Assembly (NCBI GenBank): GCA_964472565.1
Contig: CAYYNB010000010.1
Coordinates: forward strand, 253 to 64,252
Source of the DNA: an uncultured Anaerolineaceae bacterium
Lineage (GTDB): Bacteria > Chloroflexota > Anaerolineae > Aggregatilineales > Aggregatilineaceae
Direction: 5' to 3'
Length of the DNA: 64,000 nt
The notes below the pieces were generated by a model. It ran no database searches. It saw only the letters and a program-made list of their open reading frames with translations, and was not told where the DNA came from. This document shows positions 25,720 to 41,122 of the stretch, in pieces. Every line of letters starts with the position of its first letter. Positions within the stretch are counted from its first letter, which is position 1. Made by a program: the position numbers and the translations under genes.

Positions 25720-25876
25720 TTATTTCATCTAAAGAACGCAAAGCTGTTCTGGCTTGATTCCAGGGCGGCTTTTGGCTTCAGATAATAACTTATGAGAATG
25801 GTGCTTCTCAAAACTAATAAAAAAGGATAGAATTATGGATGTGCATCAAGAACGCTAATCGACTGGAAAATTCTCC

Positions 25877-26863
25877 GTGGCTGACGAAATTTCTTCCTAC
25901 AATCCATCTGGTTTAATTCCATCATCGCCCCCGCCGCTTGATTACCATCCGGTAGCTGTCTATCTGGCGAGTCTGGCTCCAGGCTCGCGCCGCACGATGC
26001 GTCAGGCGTTAGATACCATTGCCGCCATTCTCACCAACGGCCAACAGGATGCGCTGTCATTAAATTGGGGCGCTTTGCGTTATCAGCATACCGCCGCCGT
26101 TCGCTCTCGTTTAGCGGAACAGTTCAAACCCTCAACGGCGAACAAAATGCTGTCGGCCCTGCGCCAGGTGCTCCATCATGCCTGGAAGCTGGGCTTGATG
26201 TCGGCGGAAGATTATCAGCGTGCGCGCGATATAGGCGCGGTCAAAGGCAATACATTACCCGCCGGGCGCAGTTTGGATGCGGGTGAGATCGCGGCCCTGG
26301 TGATGACCTGCGAATCTGATCCCACACCGGCAGGTATTCGTGACGCTGCAATTATTGCGTTGATGTATGCGACAGGCATTCGCCGTGCATCCGTGATCAA
26401 ATTGGATCTGGATGATTATGATCCATCAGCCAAAACGCTGCGTGTGCGTGGGGCTAAGGGTCAAAAAGAATATTTAGCCCACATTCCCCAGAGCGGCGCA
26501 TTCCGCGCCCTTGAAGATTGGATCGCCATTCGCGGCGATAATTCCGGACCGTTGTTCTGGCCGATCACCAAAATGGGAAAGTTGGTCAACCGGCGGATGA
26601 GCACACAGGCCGTTTATAATCTGCTTGCCAAGCGGGCCAATGAAGCCGGAGTCGATCACTTTTCGCCGCACGATCTGCGCCGTACCCTGGCTGGTGATCT
26701 GTTGGATGCGGGGGCAGACATTGTGACCGTCCAGAAAATGTTAGCCCATGCGAATGTACAAACCACCGCCCGTTATGATCGCCGCCCCGAAGAAACCAAA
26801 CGCAAAGCCGCCAGCCTGATTCACATCCCCTATCGCGGGCGCAAAAAAAGCCCTAAATCATAA
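25877..26863 (+). CDS. Tyrosine site-specific recombinase/integrase
   Basis: 328 aa with a GTG start. Motifs ATGIRRASVIKLDLDD (Arg I), HDLRRT (box II His-x-x-Arg), LAHANVQTTARYDRR (catalytic Tyr). Confidence 0.9.
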   Translation: MADEISSYNPSGLIPSSPPPLDYHPVAVYLASLAPGSRRTMRQALDTIAAILTNGQQDALSLNWGALRYQHTAAVRSRLAEQFKPSTANKMLSALRQVLHHAWKLGLMSAEDYQRARDIGAVKGNTLPAGRSLDAGEIAALVMTCESDPTPAGIRDAAIIALMYATGIRRASVIKLDLDDYDPSAKTLRVRGAKGQKEYLAHIPQSGAFRALEDWIAIRGDNSGPLFWPITKMGKLVNRRMSTQAVYNLLAKRANEAGVDHFSPHDLRRTLAGDLLDAGADIVTVQKMLAHANVQTTARYDRRPEETKRKAASLIHIPYRGRKKSPKS

Positions 26864-26924
26864 TCGCTTGCTTGCCACACTTAAACTATCCGCGTACGAT
26901 AGAAGGATTATCGGCTAACTGTGT

Positions 26925-27608
26925 GGATACTTATCGAGGCTTTCTACTGTATTCTCTTGCGCTGTTGTGGGTCTGAATGGTGAAATTATTCAAGTGGAGG
27001 TGGACTTTAACCCGCATGGTATGCCCTCCTTCACGGTGGTGGGGCTGCCGGATACGGCGGTACAGGAAAGCCACGAACGTGTCCGATCCGCCATTCGCAA
27101 CAGTGGCTTACAGTTTCCCAACAAGCATTACACCGTAAATTTAGCGCCAGCCAGTCTGCGCAAAGCCGGCCCTGCCTATGACCTGCCAATTGCGATTGGT
27201 GTGTTAGCCTCGACCGATCAGGTTCCCTTACACAGGCTCACCGGGGCCTTGTTCGTCGGCGAACTCTCCCTTGATGGCAGCGTCCGCCATATCAGCGGTG
27301 TGCTTCCGGTAGCTCATCGGGCGTGGCAGGAAGGCTTCGAATGCATTTATGTTCCCGAAGAAGATGTATCTCAGGCGGCGCTTGTTCCTGACATTGATGT
27401 CATTCCCGTTCATTCCCTCGGCCAGTTGGTCGAACATCTCTATGATCTTCAGCCCATCCCGCCCTATGTGCGCCAGAACATCGATCTGAGCGTTCCTGAC
27501 GACCTGGATGGTTTGACCGACTTCGCCGATGTAAAAGGGCAAAGGTATCTGAAACGCGCTCTTTGTGAAGTTGCTGAAGATTGGATCACATATCATTTTG
27601 ACTGTTGA
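26925..27608 (+). pseudogene. comM: comM/yifB 5' fragment (residues ~5-204), start codon lost
   Basis: LSTVFSCAVVGLNGEIIQVEVDFNPHG...DFADVKGQ is collinear with residues 5-204 of the intact copy. Homology ends after GGG CAA (27537-27542), followed by a 22-codon tail and stop. The positions of both ATGs of the intact copy are mutated. Confidence 0.85.
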
Positions 27609-27870
27609 CTCACTTGGCGATGATAATCACCGATGGCTCGTGCATTTTAAGGTTGGACTACCCATCCACCTCACTAATTCTCACATGATACAGACGAACT
27701 ATGGATTGTGTACTTCGCCGCGATTGGTGTCTAGATAAGTCGGCCAAGAGGCTGAAACCGCCAACGAGGACATGCATAATTATTTTGAGGAGTTGACTTT
27801 CCCGCACCTAGCATTTGAGCTAGGATATATTTGTTGATAGTACCTTTATTGTTGCTATCCCAAGGCGGAT

Positions 27871-29412
27871 ATGCTCATGCTTTCGACTGTTTATTCATGC
27901 GCGATTGTAGGACTAGAAGGTGAAATTGTTCAGGTAGAAGTTGATTTTAATCCCCATGGGATGCCCGCGTTTACAGTTGTTGGTTTGCCTGATGCGGCAG
28001 TTCAAGAGAGTCGCGAGCGTGTTCGGTCGGCTATTCGCAATAGCGGTTTGAATTTTCCCAATAAACGATATACCGCGAATCTTGCCCCAGCGAATCTGCG
28101 TAAAGAGGGCCCAGCCTACGATTTACCATTAGCAATGGGCGTCTTGGCCTCAACTGATCAGGTGCCATTGCATCGTTTAAACGGCGCGGTATTTGTGGGC
28201 GAACTTTCACTGGATGGTACGGTGCGGCATATTGGCGGTATCCTGCCGATTGCGTATTGTGCATGGCAAGAAGGGTACGAGTGTATCTATGTGCCTGAAG
28301 AGGATGCTCCACAGGCAGCACTTGTGCCAGAAATCGACGTAATCCCCGTGCGTTCGCTGGGGCATTTGGTCGAACACCTTTACGATCTGCAGGTTATTGC
28401 CCCCTATGTGCGTGGCGAGATGAACCTAAGAGTACCCGGTGATTTGGGAGGGTTAACGAATTTCTCTGATATTAAAGGTCAACAACATGTTAAGCGTGCG
28501 CTCGAAGTTGCTGCGGCTGGTTCGCACAATGTGCTTATGATTGGACCGCCTGGCGTTGGGAAAACATTGCTCGCGCGGGCGTTGCCTGGTATTCTGCCGA
28601 CGATGTCACTCGACGAAGCGCTTGAAGTAACGCGCATCTATTCAGTGGCAGATTTGCTACCGCCCGATAATCCCCTGGTGCAGATTCGTCCATTCCGTGC
28701 ACCTCACCATACGATCAGTGATGCCGGCTTGGTCGGTGGTGGTTCGTTGCCTCGGCCCGGCGAAGTCTCGCTTTCACACCGTGGAGTTCTTTTTCTCGAT
28801 GAAATGCCCGAATTTGGCACCCATGCTTTGGAAGTACTACGCCAGCCGATTGAAGACAAGCATGTCACTATCAGCCGCGCACGCGTCTCTCTTTCGTTCC
28901 CGGCAAATTTCATGCTGGTTGCGGCAATGAATCCCTGTCCTTGTGGATTTCACGGCGATCCTGTTAAGGAATGTACGTGCTCGCCAGCGCAGGTACGGCG
29001 TTACCAACAGCGTCTATCAGGTCCGTTGCTGGATCGGATTGATATTCATATTGACGTGCCGCGGGTGGATTATGACAAGCTTACCGATGACCGGCGAGGT
29101 GAAAGTTCTTCAGCAATTCGTGAGCGTGTCGAAGCGGCGCGTGATCGACAGCGCGTTCGTTTTCGGGATGAAGCGCGGCTGCAAGCGAATGCCGATATGG
29201 GGCCTGGCGAAATCCGGCGCTATTGTAAGCCATCCAACGAGGGACAGCAGTTGCTGAACACTACGCTGCGCCAGATGCAGTTGAGCGCGCGTGCCTATCA
29301 CCGGATTCTCAAGTTGAGCCGGACGATTGCCGATCTTGCGGCGAATGACACAATTGAGATCGAACACCTTGCCGAGGCGATTCAATACCGCCCGCGCAAA
29401 GTGATTTATTAG
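27871..29412 (+). CDS. comM: ComM/YifB-family Mg-chelatase-like AAA+ ATPase (intact copy)
   Basis: 513 aa. N-terminal Lon-like domain, Walker A GPPGVGKT, LFLDE, a CPCG zinc-like motif, and a C-terminal ChlI-like helix bundle. Confidence 0.9.
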   Translation: MLMLSTVYSCAIVGLEGEIVQVEVDFNPHGMPAFTVVGLPDAAVQESRERVRSAIRNSGLNFPNKRYTANLAPANLRKEGPAYDLPLAMGVLASTDQVPLHRLNGAVFVGELSLDGTVRHIGGILPIAYCAWQEGYECIYVPEEDAPQAALVPEIDVIPVRSLGHLVEHLYDLQVIAPYVRGEMNLRVPGDLGGLTNFSDIKGQQHVKRALEVAAAGSHNVLMIGPPGVGKTLLARALPGILPTMSLDEALEVTRIYSVADLLPPDNPLVQIRPFRAPHHTISDAGLVGGGSLPRPGEVSLSHRGVLFLDEMPEFGTHALEVLRQPIEDKHVTISRARVSLSFPANFMLVAAMNPCPCGFHGDPVKECTCSPAQVRRYQQRLSGPLLDRIDIHIDVPRVDYDKLTDDRRGESSSAIRERVEAARDRQRVRFRDEARLQANADMGPGEIRRYCKPSNEGQQLLNTTLRQMQLSARAYHRILKLSRTIADLAANDTIEIEHLAEAIQYRPRKVIY

Positions 29413-29448
29413 GTTGGTTTCATACCAGTATTGCTGGTCGATGTTTGA

Positions 29449-29737
29449 TGTCAAAATTCGGATGCTGTCAGCGAAATCGGAATCGGGCAGCGAGCGCCGC
29501 AAAAGATGAAATGCGTGTCGCGGCTCTTTAATGCGGTGCGCCAAATTATCGAAACCGTCAACGGACAATTGACCGAGCAGTTTCATATTGAGCACAATCA
29601 TGCCCATACCTTTGAGGGGCTGTGTGCGCGTTTGATGTCCAAATTGACGGCTCATACGTTGTATCGCTTCTTGGGCAAGCCTGATTTCCTGCAAATCAAA
29701 GCCCTTGCTTTCCCGATCTAGCATAAGGACCTATTAG
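29449..29737 (+). mobile_element. IS982-like element, 3' remnant only (last ~90 codons of transposase plus terminal inverted repeat)
   Basis: ...RLFNAVRQIIETVNGQLTEQFHIEHNHAHTFEGL...ALAFPI*. The terminal repeat CTAGCATAAGGACCTATTAG (29718-29737) matches the repeats at 35287 and 36867. Confidence 0.6.
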
Positions 29738-29748
29738 TGAGGCTGTCG

Positions 29749-30459
29749 ATGAGTAAATTGAAGATCATTGCTTGCGCGACAGTCATCGAGGAAATGCTGC
29801 CTATTCTGCCTCCTGACATCCCCTATGATGCGCTAGATTTTGGCCTGCATCTCCGGCCCGAAGGTCTCAAAACGGCGCTGCAACAAGCCATTGATCAAGC
29901 GAGTGATCAGGCAGACACGATCATACTGGGATATGGTTTGTGCGCGATGGCTGTGGTTGGTTTGCGGGCCACAAATTGTACCTTAATTATCCCACATGTC
30001 GATGACTGCATCGCTATTTTTCTTGGCTCGCGCGAAGCATACGAGTACCAGTCAGGCCAAACACCGGGTACTTACTACCTGACCAAAGGATGGATCGAAG
30101 TTAACGATACTCCCTTTGAAGAACACAAACGTTTGGTCGAACGTTACGGAGTAGAACGCGCTGACCGGATGATGCAGTTAATGCTCAAACATTACACCCG
30201 GTTGGCCTTTATCGACACCGGACAGCAAAATCAGGAACACTACCGCGCTTATGCCCGCGAGGCAGCAGCGAAGTTCAATTTGAAATACGAAGAAATTCCA
30301 GGTTCAAACCGGTTAATTAAAAAAATGATTTGGGGACCCTGGGATGATGAGGACTTTGTTATTGCTCAACCCGGACAAATTGTTACGTATGCTGACTTTA
30401 AGACGACGGTTACCACCACTGGCAACTTGATCACATTTAGCCCTGATAACAATGGGTAG
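29749..30459 (+). CDS. DUF1638-like protein (commonly linked to corrinoid methyltransferase operons)
   Basis: 236 aa from ATG 29749. KIIACATVIEEM...ILGYGLC...HVDDCIAIFLGS pattern. Confidence 0.65.
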   Translation: MSKLKIIACATVIEEMLPILPPDIPYDALDFGLHLRPEGLKTALQQAIDQASDQADTIILGYGLCAMAVVGLRATNCTLIIPHVDDCIAIFLGSREAYEYQSGQTPGTYYLTKGWIEVNDTPFEEHKRLVERYGVERADRMMQLMLKHYTRLAFIDTGQQNQEHYRAYAREAAAKFNLKYEEIPGSNRLIKKMIWGPWDDEDFVIAQPGQIVTYADFKTTVTTTGNLITFSPDNNG

Positions 30460-30463
30460 AGGC

Positions 30464-32293
30464 ATGTCTGAAATAGACTTTGAGCCTGTTGGCAAACGCA
30501 TCGAGGTAGTCACAGGGACAACACTCTTGGATGCTGCGCGGCTTTCCGGTGTCGAACTGACTTCAGATTGTGGCGGTCAGGGTAGATGTGGGCAGTGTCG
30601 AATTGCCGTGATTGAGGGTGCAGTTACAAGTCCTAACGCCTCTGAAAAATCCATACTTACTGATGCTGAACTGAATCGTGGCGAGCGGTTGGCTTGCTGT
30701 GTCCATGCCGAGGGTGATGTCAAAGTACATATCCCGAAACGCTCACTGGTCATGGACCAGCGGCTGCAAATTTCGGGAATTGAGCAAACAGTAACGCTTG
30801 ACCCGATAATCCAAAATTATCCGATCGCCGCGCCCGCGCCCAACCTACAAGATTTACGAGCCGATACACAGCGGATTATTGATACCTTGGAGCTAACTCA
30901 CAATCTGTTTAGCTTAAGTATTGATCCCTTTGTAGTCAGACAGATTTCTCAAAACGCCAGAATAGTTGACTGGCAAATGACGGTAACCATTCGTGAGGAC
31001 GAGATAATCGGGATTGCACCCATTGATGCCAGGCCGGTTGGTCTGGCTGTAGACCTGGGAACAACCAAAATCGCCGCCCATCTGGTCGATTTGGAGCACG
31101 GTCACGATCTGGCTGTTGCCGGGATCATGAACCCGCAAATTGGATATGGAGAGGATGTCATCAGCCGTCTGGTTTTCACACGCCGGAATGAGGGTGGCGC
31201 TCAGATGCTGGCAACTATGATCCGTTCGGCACTGGATGAACTGCTCGGCGATTTGCTCCAACGAGCGGGTGTCGAACGTGAGCAGGTAGCTGATATGTGC
31301 ATTGTGGGTAACACGGCAATGACACATCTCCTGCTGCAATTCCCTGTAAATCAACTGGCCGCAGCGCCCTATGTGGCCGCCAGTGAGACCGCGTTGGACA
31401 TTAAAGCGCGTGACTTAAATCTGCGTACTGCGCCTGGAGCTTACGTGCATATTCTGCCGGGCATCGGCGGCTTTGTAGGGGCCGATCATGTTGCAATGAT
31501 CCTTGCCAGTGACCTGGATCATACTGATCGGGTAACGCTTGGGATTGATATTGGCACCAATACTGAGATCACACTGGCGCAACCGGGTGAAGGCTTTTTG
31601 GCGGCTGTCTCTTGTGCATCTGGTCCGGCTTTTGAAGGTGCGCATATCAGCGACGGTATGCGGGCGACCTCCGGTGCAATTGAGGCGGTGAGACTGACTG
31701 ATACGCACATCCAACTCCAAACGATCGATGATGCGCCTGCCATTGGCCTTTGTGGATCCGGTATTGTGGATGCAATTGCAGAACTTCATCGCTGGAATCT
31801 CATCAACGCACATGGTCGCCTCGACCGCAGCAGCAGCCGGGTATATGAAGGGCGACACGGGCCGGAGTTCTTATTGGTGCATGAAAAACAAAGCGGCGGT
31901 CAGCGTGATATTGTCATTTCACAGAAAGATATAAACGAGATTCAGTTGGCAAAAGGCGCTGTCCGGGCCGGGCTGGATGTACTGCTGGATAGTGCCGGGA
32001 TCAGCTATGAGGAAGTTGAGACAGTATTGATTGCCGGTGCATTTGGAACTTATCTTAATCTGCAAAGTGCCCTGGCGATTGGTCTACTTCCCGATTTCCC
32101 TCATGCTGAATACCGCCAAATCGGGAATGCAGCGGTGTTAGGCGCAAAACGGGCGCTGGTATCTCGACAAGAACGAGAGCGGGCGCGCCAGATTGCAAAA
32201 CAGACGCAATACATTGAACTGACAACCAACCCTCGATTTAAACGTTTGTTTGCATATGGCATGCTTTTCCCTGATGAAATTCGGACCCCATAA
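30464..32293 (+). CDS. Corrinoid activation/regeneration protein (RACo-type: 2Fe-2S ferredoxin domain + ASKHA ATPase/DUF4445)
   Basis: N-terminal CGGQGRCGQCRI...LACC plant-type ferredoxin cysteines. C-terminal DLGTTK / DIGTNTE sugar-kinase/actin-fold phosphate loops. Confidence 0.85.
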   Translation: MSEIDFEPVGKRIEVVTGTTLLDAARLSGVELTSDCGGQGRCGQCRIAVIEGAVTSPNASEKSILTDAELNRGERLACCVHAEGDVKVHIPKRSLVMDQRLQISGIEQTVTLDPIIQNYPIAAPAPNLQDLRADTQRIIDTLELTHNLFSLSIDPFVVRQISQNARIVDWQMTVTIREDEIIGIAPIDARPVGLAVDLGTTKIAAHLVDLEHGHDLAVAGIMNPQIGYGEDVISRLVFTRRNEGGAQMLATMIRSALDELLGDLLQRAGVEREQVADMCIVGNTAMTHLLLQFPVNQLAAAPYVAASETALDIKARDLNLRTAPGAYVHILPGIGGFVGADHVAMILASDLDHTDRVTLGIDIGTNTEITLAQPGEGFLAAVSCASGPAFEGAHISDGMRATSGAIEAVRLTDTHIQLQTIDDAPAIGLCGSGIVDAIAELHRWNLINAHGRLDRSSSRVYEGRHGPEFLLVHEKQSGGQRDIVISQKDINEIQLAKGAVRAGLDVLLDSAGISYEEVETVLIAGAFGTYLNLQSALAIGLLPDFPHAEYRQIGNAAVLGAKRALVSRQERERARQIAKQTQYIELTTNPRFKRLFAYGMLFPDEIRTP

Positions 32294-32306
32294 GAAAGGA
32301 GTTTTT

Positions 32307-33101: not shown

Positions 33102-33175
33102 GAGGGGAGCTATCGACAGAAATTAAGGACTTCATGTGCCATAAAAAAGCCTTTCATAAGTAAAAGGATTGGACT

Positions 33176-33799: not shown

Positions 33800-33802
33800 G
33801 AG

Positions 33803-35152
33803 ATGTTCACCATACCTGAAAACTGGAATAAACTGTCACCAAAAGAGCGGCAAGAAGCCCGCCTCCAAAGCTGGGCGCTAGCCAAAATCGAGTTTGCCAG
33901 CCCTGCGGCAGAACAGGGATACCGTCAGCGCGCCAAGATGATCAAAGATGTTATTCAGTTGAAAAAACCTGAACGTATCCCAATCGTACCCTGGTGGGGT
34001 GTCTATCCTGCTCACTATGCCGGGATCACCGTTCAAGAAGCCATGTACGATTACGGTAAGCTCGGCGACGCCTGGAAAAAATTCAATGCCGACTTTATGC
34101 CCGATGCGCTGGTAAGCGCGGCATTGATTGGACCGGGCAAGGTTTTTGACATGCTCGATTACAAAATCTATCGCTGGCCCGGTCACGGCACGCCACCCGA
34201 CAGCTCGTACCAGTGTGTTGAAGGCGAATACATGGCATCTAATGATTACGATGCTTTTATTACTGATCCGAGTAATTACTTTATGCGCAGTTACCTGCCG
34301 CATGTTCTGGGGGCGTTGGGACCGTGGCAGATGCTTGGACCCTGGACCGACATTATCGAGATGCCTTTCGTCGGACTCGGCTTGATTCCGGCGGGCATAC
34401 CGGATGTGCAGGCCGCATTTAAGACCTTCCTGGAAGCAGGTCAGGCCGTTATGGAATGGATTTCGGCTGTGGGACCAATTGAGGGAGCATCCATCGCCGG
34501 GCTGGGTCTGCCAAGCACAACGGGCGGTTTTACTAAGGCCCCATTCGACACCCTGGGTGATACGATGCGCGGCACGCGGGGCATCATGCTGGATATGTAC
34601 CGCCAGCCAGATAAACTGCTTACAGCCCTGGATCGCTTGGTTCCGATTGCGATTGAGATGGGCGTGCGGAATGCTAACGCCAACGATAATCCGCTGATCT
34701 TCATGCCGCTGCACAAGGGAGCAGACGGTTTCATGTCGAACAAGGATTTCGCAAAATTCTACTGGCCGACCTTGAAGGCCGTTATTCTGGGATTGATCGA
34801 AGCCGGCACGATTCCCTATCTGTTCGTTGAGGGTGGTTATAACCAACGCCTGGATATCATAGCCGATCCCGACATTCCGGCTGGGCACACGGTCTGGCTG
34901 TTCGACCAAACGGATATGCGAGAAGTTAAAAAGAAGCTGGGTGGTTGGGCCTGTTTTGGTGGCAACGTACCCGGTTCGCTGCTGAAAGCCGGAACACCGG
35001 AAGAAGTGGCCAATTATGTCAAAAAACTGATCGATGATGTCGCTCAGGATGGCGGCTATATTCTGGCTAACGGCGCGGTTCTCGACGACAGCACCCCCGA
35101 AAATGTTCACGCCATGATTGATACCGCAAAACAATACGGTGTCTATCGCTGA
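33803..35152 (+). CDS. Uroporphyrinogen-decarboxylase-family methyltransferase (substrate:corrinoid MT-I; substrate unknown)
   Basis: 449 aa. URO-D-like barrel. Position and size fit the MT-I component of three-component O-demethylase-type systems. Confidence 0.75.
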   Translation: MFTIPENWNKLSPKERQEARLQSWALAKIEFASPAAEQGYRQRAKMIKDVIQLKKPERIPIVPWWGVYPAHYAGITVQEAMYDYGKLGDAWKKFNADFMPDALVSAALIGPGKVFDMLDYKIYRWPGHGTPPDSSYQCVEGEYMASNDYDAFITDPSNYFMRSYLPHVLGALGPWQMLGPWTDIIEMPFVGLGLIPAGIPDVQAAFKTFLEAGQAVMEWISAVGPIEGASIAGLGLPSTTGGFTKAPFDTLGDTMRGTRGIMLDMYRQPDKLLTALDRLVPIAIEMGVRNANANDNPLIFMPLHKGADGFMSNKDFAKFYWPTLKAVILGLIEAGTIPYLFVEGGYNQRLDIIADPDIPAGHTVWLFDQTDMREVKKKLGGWACFGGNVPGSLLKAGTPEEVANYVKKLIDDVAQDGGYILANGAVLDDSTPENVHAMIDTAKQYGVYR

Positions 35153-35382
35153 TCCACAGAAAAACCGGATCTGGCGCTTTCCCATTGGAAGCTTGCGAGA
35201 TCCGGTAATGGTTGCGGCCAAAAACGATACCCTATGGTAAAGTCAGACGGCGGAACCAAACATGCTCCTACCATTCACAGCAATTGGCCTACTAGGGCCT
35301 TATGCTAGTTTTTTTCTAGGCCGGGAAAGCGTGATCGTTCGAGGAATGGGAAAGGAGAGGTAAACTTGGGGAGGAGGAGAAA

Positions 35383-36111
35383 ATGCGGATCAGTGTGCGC
35401 TTGCCCCAAGTGAACCCCACAAAATATCACGAAACAGAACAGTGTCCGTATGGATGTGGCGGTCAGCAATTCAAGCGGCACGGGATCAAGGGCGAACACA
35501 AAGTTCTACGGGACTTGGACCACAATGAGGTATGCAGCTACCGACTGAAATGCCTACGGTGCCAACGGACCTTTCGGGTCTATCCGCAGGGCGTGAGCAA
35601 GGGAGCGCAGCAGAGTGAGCGGCTGAAAGGCATGAGTGTGCTGTTGTATGTGCTGGGGTTGAGTTATGGCGCGGTTGCGGATTTTCTCACGGCCTTGGGT
35701 CTGGAAATTGGAAAGACAACGGTGTATGAGAATGTGCAAGCGGCAGGGATGAAGTCCCGTCAGCGTCAAAGCCAAGCGGTCGAACGGAGTAAGAAACGCG
35801 CGGTGATTGGCACGGACGGAACCTATGTGAAAGTCAAAGGGGAGAAGGTCGGATTGCAGGTCGTGGTGGATGACCGGACGGGCGACCTGTTGGGCTTGGA
35901 CCTGATCGTGAGCGAAGAAAAAGAAGAGGTGGTGGACCTGATCCGTGTGGTAGCGGCGCAGGTTAAAGCCGAAGTGATGGTGAGTGACGACGGGGGCAGC
36001 TATCAGGAAGTCGCGGACGAACTGGGCCTCGACCATCAACTCTGTCGCAGTCATGTGCAGCGCAATGTCGATGAAATCGCCGACAGCTTGCGAACGGACG
36101 CGGGCGCCTGA
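35383..36111 (+). CDS. DDE transposase with N-terminal zinc ribbon (IS6-like by motif), probably C-terminally truncated
   Basis: CPYGCGG..CLRCQRTF zinc ribbon; TDGTYVKVKGEKVGL...VSDDGGSY...HVQRNVDE resembles the DDE spacing of IS6-type enzymes. The ORF ends abruptly inside the IS982-like element. Confidence 0.55.
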   Translation: MRISVRLPQVNPTKYHETEQCPYGCGGQQFKRHGIKGEHKVLRDLDHNEVCSYRLKCLRCQRTFRVYPQGVSKGAQQSERLKGMSVLLYVLGLSYGAVADFLTALGLEIGKTTVYENVQAAGMKSRQRQSQAVERSKKRAVIGTDGTYVKVKGEKVGLQVVVDDRTGDLLGLDLIVSEEKEEVVDLIRVVAAQVKAEVMVSDDGGSYQEVADELGLDHQLCRSHVQRNVDEIADSLRTDAGA

Positions 36112-36782
36112 GTTTTCTGGTTAGCACGAGGCAGGGTCAAGAGCCGCAGGCGATTAGCGCGCAGCAACTCAGCCGCGACAACGGCGCTGATGTAGCCTTT
36201 GTCGCCATATACCGTCAAGTCCGTGTGTTGCTCCAACAACTCAACACTCACTTTCAAATCCCCCTCATTGGCGGGGGCCAGTTCAAAATCCAGAATCACC
36301 CCGCCCCGGGTAATCAACAGATGCAGCTTGTAGCCGAAGATCGTGAGCTTCTTGGACGACACCTTGCCAAAGGTTGCTCCATGCGTCGACCAATCCCCCG
36401 TCGAACCAGGGACCAGATGAAATTGCACCGCCGGAATGGGCAAGCTGTCAATGGCACACTGCCGGTCCGGGATCACATCCAACCGCTGCAAAACGGCCTG
36501 ACGGATCAGATTGATCGCTCCCATCAAGTTACGCCGCCGCCGATTGAACCGGCTTTGGCAGGGAAGGCGCGGAAACAGGTCGCCATGTTCTCCCCAGTAA
36601 CTGAGCATATCGGTTTCCAAGTCCCACCCGCGACATTCGCCGACCAGAGCCATCGTGATCAGTTCACTGTCGCTGCATTCCGGTGCTGGTCCTCAGCGCT
36701 TGAGCAGCGGCGCTATTTGTTGCATAACATCATCGACCATCACATACACGTACAGGCAAAAATCATCAAAACTGTCTATCAT
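36051..36782 (-). pseudogene. IS982-family transposase pseudogene (in-frame TGA at 36693-36695, C-terminus missing)
   Basis: Own translation gives MIDSFDDFCLYVYVMVDDVMQQIAPLLKR*GPAPECSDSELITMALVGECRGW...IDSLPIPAV...GYKLHLL...GDKGYIS. It stops matching the 3' remnant at about residue 240. Confidence 0.7.
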
Positions 36783-37251
36783 TGGGGTGTCTCCTGGTCG
36801 GCTTGGAATGAGTTTGGATGCTCTACTCCATACCTTACCGGGAGACTGCGTTTTATTCAACGAAAACTAGCATAAGGGCCAAGTAGGCAAAAAGGGGCCA
36901 ACCAGAGGTCAGGAGCTTACACAACTAATCCAAACAGTCCGGCGATGAACTGCTGTTGGGTTTGGCTATTTCCCTTTTCAACGCCTTCGATTTGTCCCTT
37001 CCTGATCATATGTATGACTTCGTAACGAACTTGGTTTCGCCCAGATAGGGGATCAAATCCTGCGCCAGCATCAAGGTTAGCCTCTCACCGTTCCTGAACT
37101 CCGGCTTGCTGAACGGTTTCCCGTTCAGCAAGCTCTGTCCCATGAGTTGGTGCCAGTTGTAAACCTCAGTAAACGACCAGGTCCACCGGAGTGCTTTTTC
37201 ACGCCTCATCAGTCGGTTTTTCACCACTAACTCAAAAAAGATAACCCGCTA

Positions 37252-37626
37252 TTAGCCTTCTCGTTCAAGCTGCTGTCGATAATAGTCCCGATAGTGAGCA
37301 ATCTTGCCGCTTATTAATTCAAGATGCCGACCAAGTTCCTCGATCTTCTGTTTTACTCTGGTTTGGTGTTCTTCAAGTAAGGACAGCCGCTGCATTACTG
37401 TGCTGTCCCCTTGTTGGGCGAGTTCAACATAACGCTGGATGTCCGCAATGGGCATTCCAGAAGCACGCAATTGGATCACGAAAACGATCCGGTACACATC
37501 GTCCTCGGAATAAAGACGATGCCCGTTCTGCTGGCGGGAGATAGGTGCGACCAGTCCAATTTGTTCGTAATAGCGTAGGGTGTGAATGCTCAACCCGGTC
37601 TCCACTGATACTTCTTGAATTCGCAT
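37252..37626 (-). CDS. MerR-family transcriptional regulator
   Basis: 124 aa. MRIQEVSVETGLSIHTLRYYEQIGLV HTH plus a coiled-coil dimerisation helix. Confidence 0.9.
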   Translation of the reverse strand: MRIQEVSVETGLSIHTLRYYEQIGLVAPISRQQNGHRLYSEDDVYRIVFVIQLRASGMPIADIQRYVELAQQGDSTVMQRLSLLEEHQTRVKQKIEELGRHLELISGKIAHYRDYYRQQLEREG

Positions 37627-37638
37627 AAAACACTCCCT

Positions 37639-38622
37639 TTACCGTCCCAGAATCTGATCAATCTGATCCATCTGATCGATGGTTAGTGGGCCAAAGTTCA
37701 TTGCCTGAATATTTTCTTCGACTTGAGCCACCGTCCGAAAGCCGGGGATGGGGATGGTGCGTTCGCTGCGGGACCAGATCCAGGCCAACGCACCCTGAAC
37801 CAGTGTTCGCCCGCCGCTAGTCAGTACCTCACGGAGATCAGGGAGTTTTGTCAAAGCTGTAACATACCATTCGGGGTGGCGTGTTCGGAAATCTTGGGCT
37901 GCTAACACTGTATCCAGATTCTCCGGCGTATATTTGCCGCTGAGAAATCCACCGGCTAGTGGCCCCCGAATGATACCTGCCTGATCATAACGATCACAGA
38001 CGGCCAGCATTCTTGGCGCGTCGCCCACGACATTCAGGTGAAGTTGGATCGCCGTGCCATGCTCTCCCTGAGCAAAAAAACTGGCCCGTTCGAGATCGTC
38101 CGTGCTCCAACCATAAAAGCGGATTTTACCCTCTGAGACGAGAGTCTCCAGGATGTCGCGCACTTCTCCGGCCTGATCGAGGGGAAAGTCCATTAAGTGA
38201 AACTGGTACAGGTCGATATAATCAGTATTCAATCGCCGCAGACTGGCCTCGCATTCGCGGTGCAGGTTCTGGATCACTTCTTCCGGACTGGTATAAAGCC
38301 CAAACCAGTTTCTCTCCTCTTCGACCTTTTTGCCGAACTTGGTCGCCAGGATGACCTGATCCCGGCAGTGTGCAAAAGCACGACCGAGTAACCGCTCACT
38401 TTTCCCAGCCCCGTAGGCGGCGGCGGTGTCATAGAAAGTAACGCCGCTAGCCAGGGCAAGATGGAGCGCCCGCAGTGATTCGGAGTCGTCAACTTCGCCC
38501 AAATAAAACAGATGGTCCGTCCCGGTTTCGCCCCGTATCATAGAACCGCCGATAGACATACATCCCAGTCCTAATGCGCCCACCTCAAGCTTACTTCTTC
38601 CAAGCAGTCGTTTTTGCAGCAT
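37639..38622 (-). CDS. Aldo/keto reductase
   Basis: 327 aa. LGLGCMSIGG; FYDTAAAYG; DLYQFH; IPIPGFR, typical AKR motifs. Confidence 0.9.
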   Translation of the reverse strand: MLQKRLLGRSKLEVGALGLGCMSIGGSMIRGETGTDHLFYLGEVDDSESLRALHLALASGVTFYDTAAAYGAGKSERLLGRAFAHCRDQVILATKFGKKVEEERNWFGLYTSPEEVIQNLHRECEASLRRLNTDYIDLYQFHLMDFPLDQAGEVRDILETLVSEGKIRFYGWSTDDLERASFFAQGEHGTAIQLHLNVVGDAPRMLAVCDRYDQAGIIRGPLAGGFLSGKYTPENLDTVLAAQDFRTRHPEWYVTALTKLPDLREVLTSGGRTLVQGALAWIWSRSERTIPIPGFRTVAQVEENIQAMNFGPLTIDQMDQIDQILGR

Positions 38623-38662
38623 GTTTTCTCTTTTTCACTCACCATGTCTATTTAACATTTCT

Positions 38663-38694
38663 ATGCTACAACCTTGAGTGAACTCTAGGTCAAG
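38663..38694 (-). promoter_or_regulatory. MerR-type promoter with 19-bp spacer and internal dyad
   Basis: Minus strand reads TTGACC (38693-38688) - 19 nt - TAGCAT (38668-38663). Dyad CTTGA-N12-TCAAG (38673-38694) spans the spacer. It lies 41 nt upstream of the AKR start. Confidence 0.5.
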
Positions 38695-39072
38695 CATGAA
38701 TTTTCAGGTAGTGGTGAACTACTGACTGATGCACGCTTGATTGGCCACATTTCGGGCAAGTCAATCCATAATTGAGGCGAGAAATAGCCCGTACCCCTAA
38801 AACAGGCCCTATGTGGGCTGTATGCCGTCGAAATCTTTGGGACAGAGGCGGGCCACAACTTCCGGAGTCAGTTGAGGCTCTTCACCGTAAATCTATGCCA
38901 AGTGAATTCCGACGCACAAGCGGACTTTCCACGCGAAAAGATGCGGAATGTGGACACTTTGCATGGGGCAAAGTGTCTTGGGCGTACATCGCACGGGGGA
39001 TCGTGTTGTGCTTGCAGCTTGAGCCTCTCTCTGTTCGGCGAATAGTGGTGCGTCAATTCAGACCACACGGTG

Positions 39073-39999
39073 TCATTCTCGATTTCGCCGTTCTGCCAGT
39101 ACTTCTGCAATGGTTGTGCGCCCCGCTCTGACGCCAGCACTCGTCAGTTCGGACAACACCTGGTTCACCGAAAGCGCCTCCAGGGCGGGATTGGAGTCCA
39201 GATGCTCACGGACACACGCTTTGACGCCATGGCGTCCGTTGGTCCGGTGTTCGCTCTGTCCGGTTCCTGCGGACAATAAACGGACAGCGGACGACTGTCC
39301 GGTACCCAGATAGCCCTTGACTTCAGACAGCACACGCCGGCGAGCATCTCGTTCATCCAGGCCAGTCTGCAGATACCGCACAAAGACGGCACGGTAGACG
39401 ACCGTGAACTCAACCTCCTGCCACTGGCGCTCACGGAAGTCGGTTTGCTCGCCCTGCTCAAGCGTCAGGTCCGCCAGTCCATCACCGGCCACCAGCGTGC
39501 CGATCGGGATGATGAACGCGGCCAGATCGGCCATGACGAGTGCTGCCTGGCTCGTGGCAGGCAGGGTATCGAAACTGTGGACAATGGCCGAAAAGGAGAG
39601 GCTTTCCAGGTGGTTGGCCGCGACGACCGACACCAACGAACCGGCACCGTTGACCAGAATAGAGGTCACGAAGAGCAACACTTCCATGGCCCACAAGGTC
39701 CAGGGAAGCGTCTGGTCGCGGGATTGAGCCAGTCGGCGCCGGAAGGCCGCATACAAGAGACCGAACTCAACACCCACTGGGGCGATGAATCCCCACCCAG
39801 GTGTGAGCATGTTGAAGATATCGGCGGTGTGCGGGGCGGAGAGACCGAACAGCACCAGGGCGACAATCACAATCCAGTAGGGGACGCTGTCGGCCACCAC
39901 ATCCCGAAACGACCGGCGCGGCGCTTCGTCATGCAGCCAGCGCTGGCGCTCTTCACGATAGAGGGTTTCCATATCCAGGGTCTCGTTCATTTGCTTCAC
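39073..39999 (-). CDS. Hypothetical protein: 4-TM N-terminal half plus C-terminal HTH-like segment
   Basis: 308 aa and visibly more GC-rich than its neighbours. TM helices (YWIVIVALVLFGL, FIAPVGVEFGLLYAAF, WAMEVLLFVTSILV, LAAFIIPIGTLVA). The C-terminus SVNQVLSELTSAGVRAGRTTIAEVL looks like an HTH. Confidence 0.5.
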   Translation of the reverse strand: MKQMNETLDMETLYREERQRWLHDEAPRRSFRDVVADSVPYWIVIVALVLFGLSAPHTADIFNMLTPGWGFIAPVGVEFGLLYAAFRRRLAQSRDQTLPWTLWAMEVLLFVTSILVNGAGSLVSVVAANHLESLSFSAIVHSFDTLPATSQAALVMADLAAFIIPIGTLVAGDGLADLTLEQGEQTDFRERQWQEVEFTVVYRAVFVRYLQTGLDERDARRRVLSEVKGYLGTGQSSAVRLLSAGTGQSEHRTNGRHGVKACVREHLDSNPALEALSVNQVLSELTSAGVRAGRTTIAEVLAERRNRE

Positions 40000-40012
40000 T
40001 CCTCACACTCGA

Positions 40013-41119
40013 ATGGGACGGTTGGGGTCTAATCGGCAAATGACGACAAAAGGAGCGGACACGTTGCGCCCCGCCAACACGCAGATGATCATGACAACTC
40101 CACTTCCACGCGAGAGATGGTGTTATCGTGCAAGGAGTACACGAGACGATAGGTCAAAGATGAGGTCTTGTTGTAAGAATGCCTGCGGTCAGGAGCACGT
40201 CAAAAGAGCGCTGGAGGTTGCCGCCGCTGGTTCGCATAATCTTTTGATGGTTGGCCCGCCCGGAGTCGGCAAGACCCTGTTGGCCCGCGCTTTACCGGGC
40301 ATTTTACCTACGATGTCACTGGAAGAGGCGCTTGAGGTCACACAGATTTACTCCGTCGCCGACAAACTCCCGCCCGGCAAACCGTTGATCCGGGTTCGCC
40401 CGTTCCGCGCGCCGCACCACACCGTGAGTGAGGCGGGTTTGATCGGCGGCGGATCATGGCCGCGCCCTGGTGAAGTATCGCTGGCCCATCATGGGTTGCT
40501 CTTTCTGGACGAGCTGTTGGAATATGGCTCGCATTCGCTCGAAGTGCTCCGCCAGCCGATTGAAGACAAAATTGTGACCATCAGCCGTGCCCAGGTCGCG
40601 TTGATGTTTCCGGCTAATTTTATGTTGGTCGCTGCCATGAATCCGTGCCCCTGTGGCTACTACGGCGATCCGGTGAAGGAATGCACCTGCTCAATCTCTG
40701 CGATCCGCCGTTACCAGCAGCGGCTTTCTGGCCCGATGTTAGATCGCATCGATATTCATGTGGATGTCCCGCGTGTGGATTACGATAAACTGACCGATGA
40801 TCGCCGGGGTGAGCCTTCGTCGGCCATCCGTGCTCGTGTCGAAGCGGCGCGAGATCGCCAGCGGATTCGCTTTCGTGGGGAACCCCGCTTGCAGTCCAAC
40901 GCCGACATGGGCGCAAGTGACATCCGGCGTTTTTGCCACCCGGATGCGGCGGGCCAGCAGTTGTTGAATACAACCCTGCGCCAGATGCAGCTCAGCGCGC
41001 GCGCTTACCATCGTATCCTCAAACTCAGCCGCACTATCGCCGATCTGGCAGACTGCGAAACTATCGAAATCGGCCATTTAGCCGAGGCGATTCAATATCG
41101 CCCGCGCAAGATCATGTAA
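40013..41119 (+). pseudogene. comM: comM/yifB 3' fragment (residues 203-513) fused in frame to 58 unrelated N-terminal codons
   Basis: From GGT CAG at 40187: GQEHVKRALEVAAAGSHNLLMVGPPGVGKT... to the normal C-terminus AIQYRPRKIM. About 85% aa identity to the intact copy. The Lon-like N-domain is absent. Confidence 0.85.
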
Positions 41120-41122
41120 ACA

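Follow-up and report, generated by a model that had tools for sequence, protein, structure and literature searches.

The 64,000-nt stretch of DNA analysed here (the window), from an uncultured Anaerolineae bacterium, raises the question of how one strand came to carry the DNA-repair/competence gene comM/yifB three times, as a 5' piece (26940-27542), an intact gene (27871-29412) and a 3' piece (40187-41119), next to a tyrosine recombinase gene. An earlier note on this DNA had reported three same-strand comM-type sequences; all three were located, and a tblastn search of the whole window found no fourth. The answer that we favour, giving it about an even chance of being right, is one 12.6-kb insertion into a resident comM, copy A, by site-specific crossover of a circular block that brought in a second comM, copy B. 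The locus is laid out as follows.

25788-25815, + strand: conserved 28-nt imperfect palindrome, ACTTATGAGAA TGGTGC TTCTCAAAACT, ~60 nt upstream of the recombinase gene
25877-26863, + strand: Xer-like tyrosine recombinase gene, 328 aa, outside the fragment bracket (Pfam Phage_integrase, 1e-31)
26940-27542, + strand: A5', 5' fragment of the putative resident copy A, codons ~5-204, no start codon; 72% nt and 79% aa identity to B
27543-40186, no strand: inserted mosaic block, 12.6 kb, bracketed by A5' and A3'
27543-27578, + strand: tail at the left end of the block, putatively comM-derived in-frame stretch RYLKRALCEVA, matching codons 205-214/215
27813-27870, + strand: native upstream region of B with the motif TTTGAGCTAGGATAT (homology to locus L180; motif in relatives)
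27871-29412, + strand: B, intact comM/yifB, 513 aa (511 aa from the second ATG; domain and family matches)
40187-41119, + strand: A3', 3' fragment of the putative resident copy A, codons 203-513; 74% nt and 82% aa identity to B
41123-42664, - strand: M1 peptidase gene, right chromosomal flank, converging on A3', the two stop codons 3 nt apart (Pfam match)

A split copy beside an intact one

The three sequences are in exact register, with A5' at the B position minus 940 and A3' at the B position plus 11710. The same Gly-Gln codon pair, on the N-edge of the AAA+ domain, marks the break in both fragments, and the codons are those given in the earlier note (GGG CAA at 27537 in A5', GGT CAG at 40187 in A3' and GGT CAA at 28477 in B). 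Jointly they span residues 5-513 with nothing lost, and the whole AAA+ and C-terminal domains sit in A3', which covers positions 4-206 of the 207 of PF01078. The break codon at 27537 was placed correctly, but comM homology does not end there: tblastn follows it in A5' to residue 214 (27575), so that A5' and A3' overlap by ~12 codons (203-214). Nucleotide identity to B is 72.4% across 533 nt for A5' (26939-27542) and 74.0% across 914 nt for A3' (40187-41109), and the amino acid identities listed above fall short of the 83-85% first put forward.

This three-part arrangement is not an assembly artefact. It was assembled independently in contigs from seven JGI metagenomes and one SRA run, with the left junction lying within seven contigs, the right junction within three, and one further contig besides; all match the window at >99.8% identity, and both junctions are covered by a single contig of 66 kb. 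Every junction-spanning contig has the integrated form, and public data yielded neither an empty site nor an intact A nor a circular junction. In the population as sampled, the arrangement is fixed.

Copy B is intact at 513 aa, as previously read: its ChlI, Mg_chelatase and Mg_chelatase_C domains agree with a score of 604 bits against TIGR00368 YifB (cut-off 362), and it has no private substitution at any of 187 columns conserved to at least 97%. Copy A is decaying. The conserved start ATG reads AGG in A5', where both ATGs of B are missing (TTA...AGG, as the earlier note had seen), leaving an internal GTG as the sole start. Besides this loss, A has two more private changes at columns of at least 97% conservation. 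The promoter-like motif upstream of A5' is degenerate, and no sigma-70-like promoter for A3' was found in 38500-41300. B has probably taken over comM's job from the split A.

The mosaic block and the source of copy B

Apart from B, the block contains the following features.

29506-29737, + strand: IS982 transposase C-terminal remnant with terminal inverted repeat at 29718-29737 (NF033520, positions 193-241 of 243, E=4.5e-14; repeat in families D15/I4)
29737-35152, + strand: corrinoid methyltransferase cassette, with DUF1638, RACo activase, pterin-binding methyltransferase, B12-binding protein and URO-D-like methyltransferase genes (Pfam matches)
35284-36891, no strand: IS debris with 29-nt inverted repeats at its bounds (repeat I1)
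35383-36111, + strand: IS6/IS66-like fragment in the IS debris (NF033587)
36051-36653, - strand: IS982 transposase N-part in the IS debris (NF033520, positions 9-195 of 243, E=1e-34)
37207-38731, - strand: MerR/NmlR-type regulator gene (37252-37626) and aldo-keto reductase (AKR) gene (37639-38622), both on the - strand, between 31-nt inverted repeats (repeat I2; family matches)
39073-39999, - strand: orf308, helical membrane protein with a C-terminal HTH, adjoining the right junction (no family match)

The corrinoid cassette is flanked by IS982-type inverted repeats (29718-29737 and 35284-35312). orf308 has no match in the Pfam, NCBIfam or PHROG families and its AlphaFold2 model is poor (pLDDT 66); among its 307 homologues are some from outside this population that reach 92% and 86% identity, and it belongs to a multicopy family whose named members are recorded only in Anaerolineae/Chloroflexota, with three paralogues of 83-92% mutual identity in one MAG. 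No recombinase domain was found in any ORF scanned in the block, nor are Tn7-like genes or a target-site duplication present.

Contrary to the earlier view, not all of the DNA between the fragments is accessory. In the relative L179, comM is directly preceded by a MerR(-)-AKR(-) pair of ~50% aa identity with the same relative orientation, and the circularised block reads MerR(-)-AKR(-)-orf308(-)-[515-nt spacer]-comM(+), which is the same order. Because the pair is a natural neighbour of comM in L179, the block resembles the comM locus of a relative to which IS982-associated cargo has been joined; that the pair stands beside comM in only one relative counts against the history that we favour. 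The resident status of A draws support from the right flank, since A3' keeps a family-wide linkage of comM to the M1 peptidase gene that is seen in L001, L178, L179 and L181. In those relatives M1 precedes comM and shares its strand, an orientation unlike the one here; this counts against the favoured history, which then calls for at least one further rearrangement.

The two copies belong to different lineages, as the earlier note had proposed. B is nearest to the comM of another Aggregatilineaceae genome (P0043/L181; 93% aa, 81% nt), while the identity of the M1 peptidase to each of the four relatives is 63-69%; B thus stands closer to L181 than vertical descent would lead one to expect. With 77-85% identity to all four, A fits vertical descent, and its best identity in a search among 5.8 billion proteins is at most 85%. 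Nucleotide homology between B and L180 goes on for 58-68 nt upstream of the start codon, and the motif TTTGAGCTAGGATAT is common to L178, L179, L180 and L181. We infer that B was imported from another Aggregatilineaceae lineage. Third-position usage, which had been offered as a sign of foreign origin, does not mark it out: the GC3 of B is 0.49, inside the range of the 38 ORFs outside the block (0.435-0.668; mean 0.571, sd 0.057).

Junctions, the neighbouring recombinase and rival histories

The insertion point lies at codons 203/204, inside the almost invariant KGQEHVKRALEVAAAG motif. The two sides of the break complement each other cleanly and the target lost no nucleotides, which counts for a single insertion. 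In register, the tail at the left end shows a mean of 18.9/33 identities to 86 real comM genes, against a mean of 8.4/33 and a maximum of 14.1 among 2000 shuffles. By hand count it is ~70% identical to B and ~65% to A3', its KRAL is written with different synonymous codons, and unrelated codons then lead to a stop at 27606-27608. Judged by these comparisons, the tail comes from comM, with frame and register preserved, and chance does not explain it. No direct repeat of 9 nt or longer is common to both junctions, in keeping with the earlier failure to see an identical one longer than ~5 nt; attL and attR share only GGNCAR, with no common run >5 nt, and the missing identical core counts against site-specific insertion. 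Other elements also end inside comM, which bears out the suggestion that the gene is a recurrent attachment target. IMG/VR proviruses do so at residues ~347-355, and in L183 phage tail-fibre genes are joined to comM at ~residue 218, 3-4 codons from the end of our tail; surplus 3' pieces of comM are found in L008 and also in L074, where the displaced piece lies 3 kb downstream of an intact comM.

We propose that A once stood intact between the Xer-like recombinase gene and the M1 peptidase gene, and that a single 12.6-kb insertion at codons 203/204 cut it in two. The block would have brought the complete comM B of another Aggregatilineaceae lineage, its own upstream region included; with B brought along complete, ComM function would have been kept and A would have been free to decay. 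The IS982-bracketed corrinoid cassette and the IS debris would be additions to a relative-type comM neighbourhood. Entry would have been one reciprocal, conservative crossover between a circular form of the block and the conserved comM motif, likely catalysed by a site-specific recombinase that acted in trans or has since been lost, the block no longer encoding one. The element's attP copy of the target would then survive as the 33-nt comM-like stretch at the left end, and the element now looks immobilised.

The recombinase gene in the window lies outside the bracket as the earlier note described, ending 61 nt before the A5' start given there. It scores 119 bits against NCBIfam XerC, below the cut-off of 335, and is thus not an XerC/XerD equivalog. 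Its family is large (5512 homologues at E<=1e-20) and conserved, the named members among the best matches are Chloroflexota, and the usual setting is among housekeeping genes: homologues up to 75% identical show conserved housekeeping synteny (L093, L098, L172, L189), and comM stands beside the gene in 0 of 80 metagenome loci, bar one 37-aa scrap. No comM occurs in the ~700 nt downstream of L116, the closest homologue sampled (84% across the part that was recovered). The palindrome, which is the AT-rich stretch of the earlier note, has an 11+6+11 layout, follows a TATAAT-like box and recurs upstream of recombinase homologues (>30 loci by blastn; 34 of 86 loci by fuzzy-match search). It is single in the window by PWM (40.8 bits; next best site elsewhere 8.7) and absent from both junctions. 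Its inner stem covaries, with 24 G-U-type versus 3 A-C-type non-Watson-Crick pairs, a pattern that leans towards an RNA hairpin; it has no Rfam match. The L189 homologue is not at a GC-skew switch. Given the housekeeping synteny and the palindrome missing from the junctions, nothing ties this recombinase to the insertion of the block, and the link earlier drawn between them is not sustained.

The same insertion history might instead have begun with illegitimate, microhomology-mediated recombination, with no site-specific recombinase, of a piece of a relative's chromosome acquired by transformation or as an IS-generated circle. This is unlikely, if far from negligible: the block has no recombinase gene, the att core is not identical, junction microhomology is only 2+2 nt (GG..CA), the block resembles a relative's chromosomal DNA plus IS elements, and the presence of ComEC and ComM genes makes natural transformation plausible, but against it stand a target without a lost nucleotide, an in-register, in-frame comM-like left end beyond chance, and a break in a highly conserved motif near the L183 prophage junction. 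We regard it as improbable that the neighbouring recombinase inserted the block and can still excise it from outside, as host Xer proteins act on IMEX elements; excision, with the expected junction GCCTGCGGTCAG|AGGTATCTG, would then rebuild A and make the locus a recombinase-driven switch between two comM alleles. Finding such a gene <700 bp from an island junction by chance has a probability of ~1%, a rough estimate that assumes some tens of recombinase genes in a genome of a few Mb; moreover, L181 also has a (different) tyrosine recombinase directly upstream of comM, and the block has none of its own. Against this stand the synteny, the 80 loci, L116 and the junctions without a palindrome, all described above, the integrated form of all junction-spanning contigs, and the lost start codon of A, because of which excision would not restore a working gene.

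That A5' and A3' are halves of one gene was the earlier claim, and it fares well: their distance and dN profiles to relatives run parallel, the 5'/3' rank correlation (0.36) is typical of complete genes (median 0.40), and no test showed a chimera signal between them. That they are instead remnants of two comM copies, truncated independently by earlier insertions, seems to us a distant prospect. The overlap codons 203-214 are only ~65% identical, near the A-B divergence, bootstrap nearest neighbours differ between the 5' half (P0017/P0028) and the 3' half (P0002/P0003), and comM scraps pile up elsewhere (L008 and L154); yet two breaks within 12 of 513 codons in complementary order have a chance of roughly 5% or less, and, with a star-like phylogeny, the nearest neighbours of either half are weakly supported. 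We attach very little probability to a functional split, in which A5' (the N-terminal Lon-like domain) and A3' (the AAA+/C-terminal module) would be made as separate proteins alongside B. Open reading frames of 200 and 310 codons are kept, the break falls exactly at the domain border, an in-frame ATG lies 27 nt ahead of A3' (at 40160), and proteins of 213 and 319 aa are predicted by gene callers, but open frames are expected of a young pseudogene anyway, and the start loss in A5', the lack of a promoter-like site before A3' and the excess of private changes at conserved columns in A over B all speak against such a split.

Comparison with known systems

AbaR/Tn6022-type islands move by means of Tn7-like transposition proteins, carry terminal inverted repeats, duplicate a short target site on insertion, and deprive the cell of an intact comM. 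The locus described here resembles such resistance islands in Acinetobacter comM (PMC11014353) in its target and in the 5' and 3' fragments that flank a multi-kb accessory block. The likeness that the earlier note drew thus holds for the target gene and fails for the machinery, as Tn7-like genes, terminal repeats and duplication are absent here, and a complete spare comM is carried.

Some elements interrupt a gene reversibly, such as skin in B. subtilis sigK, the Anabaena nifD/fdxN/hupL elements and the Listeria comK prophage with its 'regulatory switch'; their recombinase lies inside, the split gene is the sole copy, and excision restores it. Our locus shares with them a gene split by a kb-sized element without coding loss and a nearby tyrosine recombinase gene; here, however, the recombinase lies outside, a spare comM is present and the start codon of the split copy is gone. 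IMEX elements use host Xer recombinases at dif. Single-recombinase Xer systems with a gene-linked dif are exemplified by XerS/difSL (PMC2731167) and in Legionellales (10.1101/2021.09.12.459815). A recombinase-less block near an Xer-like gene with a conserved palindrome immediately upstream recalls them, whereas the junctions here have no copy of the palindrome, which by its pairing leans towards an RNA hairpin, and the L189 homologue is off the GC-skew switch.

Phage 21 in icd and SXT in prfC insert inside a coding gene and bring a replacement part. In the cases of this type known to us, including dusA, only the displaced segment is carried, it is fused in frame at the att site, and the integrase is encoded adjacent. 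Insertion inside a coding gene with replacement of the displaced part is described for the dusA-specific integrase-mediated islands (PMC4482086). As in these elements, a conserved coding motif is hit, target-like sequence lies at the junction (here the 33-nt tail) and target function is kept by element-borne sequence, but the in-frame tail runs for 11 codons and then stops, no integrase gene lies inside, and a separate complete comM 330 nt downstream supplies the function. The prophages and islands that border comM in the IMG/VR loci L183-L188 and in the genomes L008 and L074 share comM as a recurrent attachment target; most of their junctions are at ~347-355 rather than 203, they replace only the 3' part where both copies are visible, and none has a complete extra comM. 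The locus is an unusual variant of ordinary genomic-island insertion and not a new kind of system.

Three comM copies and a probable split of the resident gene

In the window, tblastn finds exactly three comM (yifB)-type sequences, all on the plus strand. A resident copy, A, is present as a 5' piece (A5') and a 3' piece (A3') on either side of a 12.6-kb block (27543-40186), and a third copy, B, lies inside that block:

26939-27542, plus strand: A5', 72.4% identical in nucleotide sequence to the 5' part of B
27871-29412, plus strand: B, complete, 513 aa, with ChlI/Lon-like, AAA+ Mg_chelatase and C-terminal domains
40187-41109 (to 41119), plus strand: A3', 74.0% identical in nucleotide sequence to the 3' part of B

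B scores 604 bits against NCBIfam TIGR00368 (cut-off 362), as a full-length YifB/ComM protein does, and matches PF13541, PF01078 and PF13335 each across essentially the full model length; its database form is 511 aa. These family and domain matches, with the tblastn result, bear out the earlier note's account of three same-strand copies with B intact. A5' (codons 5-204(214)) and A3' (codons 203-513) lie in register as complementary halves around the block. The claim that they break at identical Gly-Gln codons holds, the register being exact (GGG CAA at 27537, GGT CAG at 40187 and GGT CAA at 28477 in B), as do the claims that both ATGs of B are missing from A5' and that 61 nt separate the end of the neighbouring tyrosine recombinase gene (25877-26863) from the start then assigned to A5'. 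The extent given for A5' (residues ~5-204) was right for its core and too short at its end, since homology continues to residue 214 (27575), so that the fragments overlap by ~12 codons. Amino-acid identity between A and B is 79% in the 5' part and 82% in the 3' part, not the 83-85% estimated earlier.

An assembly artefact was ruled out, as both junctions are present again in independent assemblies. Eleven contigs, from seven JGI bioreactor metagenomes (3300023203, 3300023207, 3300021561, 3300021843, 3300020812, 3300020813 and 3300029799) and one SRA run (SRR8165484), match the window at >99.8% identity; of these, seven cross the left junction and three the right, a 66-kb contig crossing both, and the insertion is present in every population contig that spans a junction. 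MAG annotation pipelines treat A as two genes, 'ChlI' and 'Mg chelatase'. For A5' they give a 213-aa 'ChlI' protein starting at an internal GTG; for A3' (40160-41119), which has an in-frame ATG 27 nt before the junction, they give a 319-aa 'Mg chelatase' protein. Both calls are probably annotation artefacts of a split pseudogene.

Jointly the two pieces span residues 5-513 with nothing lost, and against five relatives the two show parallel identity and dN profiles. For A, the distances of the 5' and 3' parts correlate by rank at 0.36; complete genes have a median of 0.40. The dS of A is saturated against every homologue, and dN/dS is <0.08 wherever dS can be estimated, so that purifying selection acted through nearly all of the history of A; dating the split by dN/dS was abandoned because of that saturation. 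A shows few signs of recent decay. AGG stands in place of the conserved start ATG, and at 187 columns that are at least 97% conserved A has two private substitutions beyond the start; B has no such substitution, and the median for the family is one. The motif T(T/C)TG(A/C)GCTAGGATAT, common to the upstream regions of B and of comM in four relatives (L178, L179, L180 and L181), is degenerate before A5', and no sigma-70-like site was found before A3'. From these comparisons we conclude that A was probably one gene, and that its disruption is recent when set against the divergence of A from all known homologues, with a star-like phylogeny limiting the power of the test. The upstream motif, which is probably a promoter or operator of comM, lies ~55-65 nt 5' of the comM start in Aggregatilineaceae (27807-27824 in the window), and in B forms part of a small hairpin (CCTAGCATTTGAGCTAGG).

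The nearest genomes belong to the Aggregatilineaceae (Anaerolineae, Chloroflexota). In a search of 5.8 billion proteins, where B itself is P0038, the protein nearest to B is P0043 (93% identical in amino acids and 81% in nucleotides, dS >1), encoded on contig L181 of GCA_050287305, followed by P0029 on L180, 87% and 91% identical in its two halves. The C-terminal part of the M1 peptidase encoded in the right flank is 63-69% identical to its counterparts in L001, L178, L179 and L181 alike, so these four relatives are about equally distant from this organism, and A, at 77-85% identity to their comM genes, stands where vertical descent would place it. That B is much nearer to L181 than expected is the best evidence that it is probably an imported copy. 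Third-position composition, invoked earlier to the same end, does not mark B out: its GC3 of 0.49 departs by no more than 1.4 sd from that of the window's genes, for which 38 ORFs beyond the block give a mean of 0.571 (sd 0.057, range 0.435-0.668). The idea that B is a local hybrid of two element-borne halves from tandem integrations was rejected, the same gene being found in L181 with both halves 93% identical. With the reconstituted A protein as query, no comM >85% identical to A was found among the 5.8 billion proteins or in GTDB species genomes, so an intact A, and hence an empty site, is not on record.

Junctions and contents of the block

The break falls inside the almost invariant motif KGQEHVKRALEVAAAG, exactly at the N-terminal edge of the AAA+ domain, and A3' retains PF01078 positions 4-206/207. 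In agreement with the earlier report of no direct repeat, the junctions share none of at least 9 nt, and have in common only GGNCAR and a 33-nt stretch that is ~65% similar with a 3-nt indel. We found no target duplication, no inverted repeat linking 27543-27875 to 39995-40186 and, in the search proposed for 27543-27870 and 39999-40186, no arm-type or direct repeats beyond chance.

The 33 nt that follow codon 204 of A5' encode RYLKRALCEVA. Compared in register with 86 real comM genes, this tail matches at a mean of 18.9 of 33 positions, against 8.4 (maximum 14.1) for 2000 shuffles; its KRAL uses synonymous codons other than those of A3' and B, and by hand count it is ~70% identical to B and ~65% to A3'. 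Since the rest of A has decayed so little, the tail is too diverged for a decayed target-site duplication. On the simplest reading it would belong to the insert, as an attP-type copy of the target such as elements that integrate inside genes carry. If the block were excised, a rebuilt A would read GCCGATGTAAAAGG(G/T)CA(A/G) joined to GAGCACGTCAAAAGAGCGCTGG, and the circle junction would read AAGAATGCCTGCGGTCAG joined to AGGTATCTGAAACGCGC.

From left to right the block contains:

first ~330 nt: the tail, then the native upstream region of B (homology to L180 begins at 27813)
27871-29412, plus strand: B
29506-29737: C-terminal remnant of an IS982 transposase (NF033520 positions 193-241) with a terminal repeat
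after the IS982 remnant: corrinoid methyltransferase cassette (DUF1638, RACo, pterin-binding, B12-binding and URO-D-like proteins)
35284-36891: 1.6-kb IS unit bounded by 29-nt inverted repeats
37207-37237 and 38701-38731: 31-nt inverted repeats with the MerR/NmlR-AKR pair
39073-39999, minus strand: orf308, an unannotated gene by the right junction

The IS unit holds an N-terminal part of IS982 (model positions 9-195 of 243, opposite strand) and an IS6/IS66-like fragment, and IS982-type repeats at 29718-29737, 35284-35312 and 36863-36891 match one another. The two IS982 remnants (model positions 193-241 and 9-195) thus lie on opposite strands, 6.3 kb apart, flanking the corrinoid cassette, which would fit either a single IS982 divided by an inversion (~29.5-36.05 kb) next to the IS6/IS66-like fragment or two partial copies. 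That the corrinoid cassette sits in inserted DNA between IS982-type repeats matters for metabolic inference. Within its RACo gene (30452-32293), five population contigs end within ~50 nt of one another (~32042-32093), and the product is called as 609 or 613 aa depending on the sample; strains may differ here, or the site may contain a repeat.

The only transposase sequences of the block are these interior IS982 and IS6/IS66-like fragments. Its scanned ORFs contain no recombinase domain, the sole recombinase gene lying outside the bracket, and no Pfam or NCBIfam match to Tn7-like genes (TnsA/B/C-type, tniA/B/C); nor does the block hold a remnant of an integrase of the type found in L181. Rfam gave two sub-threshold matches in 25000-41500, which we take as chance.

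With its ends joined, the block would read MerR(-)-AKR(-)-orf308(-)-515 nt-B(+), the same order as in L179 (M1(+), MerR(-), AKR(-), comM(+)), whose MerR and AKR are ~50% identical to those of the window. By this shared order the block resembles less a dedicated mobile element than a circularised comM neighbourhood from a related bacterium, its ends meeting at the IS debris. The earlier view that everything between the fragments is accessory is therefore partly right, and fails for MerR-AKR-comM, whose order is the natural one in L179. The 31-nt inverted repeats around the MerR/NmlR-AKR pair are 84% complementary, as though these two genes formed a separate cassette; their counterparts in L179, upstream of comM, show no nucleotide similarity to the repeats.

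The protein encoded by orf308 matches no known family. It has 307 homologues, all of those with a source name coming from Anaerolineae or Chloroflexota, and is absent from plasmid, phage and IMG/VR collections. Outside this population, homologues are 92% (P0243/P0244) and 86% (P0245, on a 937-kb contig) identical, and a single MAG carries three paralogues of the family (K8L97_30170, K8L97_30210 and K8L97_20395) that are 83-92% identical to one another. These paralogues, together with the close members in other organisms, suggest a mobile-element gene, and orf308 may mark a mobile family. The structural model, of low confidence, is a helical membrane protein with a C-terminal HTH; given this model and the missing family match, a hidden recombinase was rejected.

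The neighbouring recombinase and comM as a target

The recombinase, whose start codon is GTG, scores 119.5 bits against XerC (cut-off 335) and 105 bits against XerD (cut-off 330) in NCBIfam. Scores this low place it outside the XerC and XerD equivalogs, in an unnamed family of Xer-like tyrosine recombinases. Among 5512 homologues, the best 120 are 55-80% identical, and those that are named are Chloroflexota. Several homologues keep a housekeeping synteny (L093, L096, L097, L098, L172 and L189): a ~1060-aa protein(-), the recombinase(+), Ham1(-) and AOR, with a radical-SAM gene and rpoD coming next in L189; in L174-L177, IS elements follow the homologue. Apart from a 37-aa scrap in L154, comM adjoins the homologue in none of 80 metagenome loci, and the closest sampled homologue (L116, 84% identical over the recovered part) has no comM in the ~700 nt downstream. 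On these grounds, and given the housekeeping synteny, we rejected a comM-specific integrase, and the recombinase is linked to the insertion by proximity only.

The AT-rich stretch upstream of this gene, pointed out earlier, holds a 28-nt imperfect palindrome, ACTTATGAGAA-TGGTGC-TTCTCAAAACT, behind a TATAAT box (25788-25815). It is kept upstream of recombinase homologues only 52-75% identical (34 of 86 loci, some with proteins at just 52-60% identity, and with carriers among L099-L177), with the consensus GCTTATGAGAATGGTAATTCTCAAAACT, directly after a TATAAT-like box and 40-90 nt (up to 320 nt) upstream of the gene. A position weight matrix matches once in the window, at 25788, with no copy or half-site at the junctions, and Rfam has no match. 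The inner stem covaries, with 24 G-U-type against 3 A-C-type pairs, an excess more in keeping with an RNA hairpin in the leader than with a DNA core site; the palindrome may be such a hairpin or, less probably, a recombinase or operator site. Dimer resolution at the terminus of the XerS/difSL kind was also considered and is not supported: GC skew in the window tracks gene orientation, the skew in L189 is positive on both sides of the homologue without a switch, and a GC-rich clade lacks the motif.

In four relatives (L001, L178, L179 and L181) the M1 gene precedes comM on the same strand, the two being separated by zero to two variable genes (none in L001, CSD in L178, MerR-AKR in L179 and an integrase in L181). 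In the window A3' and M1 converge, with stop codons 3 nt apart, and there is no counterpart of the Wzy/TPR gene found after comM in L178 and L179. Judging from this gene order, the recombinase-comM unit must have been inverted at least once, before or after the insertion. The integrase of L181 is a different tyrosine recombinase (359 aa, 783-1862, 28% identical) that stands alone between M1 and comM, 95 nt upstream of comM, on a contig that stops 57 nt after it. Its position keeps the proximity of the window's recombinase notable, and in Aggregatilineaceae the region 5' of comM seems to act as a second hot spot for DNA that carries recombinase genes.

The comM gene itself is also interrupted elsewhere. 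Proviral contigs in IMG/VR end inside it at residues ~347-355 (L184, L187 and L188), a cluster at the CPCG motif, at ~268-275 (L185 and L186) and, immediately ahead of the Walker A motif, at ~218 (L183). The L183 junction joins phage tail-fibre genes to comM residues 218-507, 3-4 codons from the point where our tail ends. Stray fragments include a 3' fragment 3 kb downstream of an intact comM in L074 (14525-14955), three extra 3' fragments in L008 (2145-4089), the scrap beside the recombinase homologue in L154 (3779-3889) and a 5'-truncated comM in L076 (1382-2548). Together with the proviruses they point to comM as a recurrent attachment gene whose conserved motifs serve as attachment points. 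Literature searches on comM or yifB as an integrase target turned up Tn7-like and general island papers only.

Route of entry and relation to known systems

How the block entered can be weighed from its ends. We give roughly even chances to a site-specific recombinase that acted in trans or has since been lost, a route favoured by a junction that is conservative and in register, by the likeness of the tail to comM and by the prophage junction close by in L183. Illegitimate recombination, for which the missing integrase gene and the missing identical core both speak, seems unlikely given the same features. We consider it improbable, somewhat more so than illegitimate joining, that the neighbouring recombinase catalyses a still-reversible switch; its place 61 nt from the split gene speaks for this, and the lack of its palindrome at the junctions against. 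That A5' and A3' are two unrelated fragments is harder still to credit beside their complementary extents and parallel profiles, the star-like phylogeny notwithstanding. A functional split of A, against which the lost start codon speaks, is the least probable of all.

In the best-supported account, events would have run as follows. An intact resident A would have stood beside the recombinase gene and M1, and a relative's comM locus, in circular form, would have recombined once with the conserved motif at codons 203/204, the IS982-associated corrinoid cassette being in the circle already or gained later. ComM function would then have passed to B, A would have started to decay, and IS activity would have rearranged the interior of the block. 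A far-reaching version, to which we give little credence, holds that comM codons 203-218, just before Walker A, are the attachment site of undescribed Chloroflexota integrative elements that bring a whole replacement gene and so drive, in situ, xenologous replacement of a conserved helicase of DNA repair and competence; their machinery would include the orf308 family or the neighbouring recombinase in trans.

What the earlier note observed is thus confirmed, and its interpretation is partly supported. We read the locus as a genomic island that entered comM and brought along a whole xenologous copy of that gene. If this reading is true, incoming DNA destroys a resident housekeeping-type gene and supplies a substitute in one step, a concrete route to the xenologous gene displacement that is usually inferred only from phylogenies, and both Chloroflexota and a second position in the gene join the list of comM attachment sites. 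No long-standing question is opened by the locus, which neatly exemplifies gene displacement in situ. Two features stand to one side of this picture: the leader palindrome conserved with a widespread recombinase of Chloroflexota, and orf308 with its multicopy family.

Among known systems, the AbaR/Tn6022 islands, to which the earlier note likened the locus, have only the target gene in common with it; their defining features, Tn7-like genes, terminal repeats and target duplication, were each looked for in the block and are absent. In skin/nifD-type elements and phage regulatory switches the recombinase is internal and excision restores the only functional copy, whereas here the recombinase lies outside the block, an intact B is present and A has no start codon. 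IMEX elements, which use dif-Xer recombination, have dif-like core sites at their ends and a site at the replication terminus, whereas the palindrome here occurs only at 25788 and not at the block ends. Integrating elements usually carry an in-frame patch rather than a whole gene copy. In supplying the whole gene, and in the absence of an internal integrase gene and a repeated core, the locus differs from islands of the dusA type. It nevertheless works most like these integrase-type islands, which insert in a coding gene and compensate for the damage (dusA; PMC4482086). On present evidence the mechanism itself is not new, and every component is of a known class.
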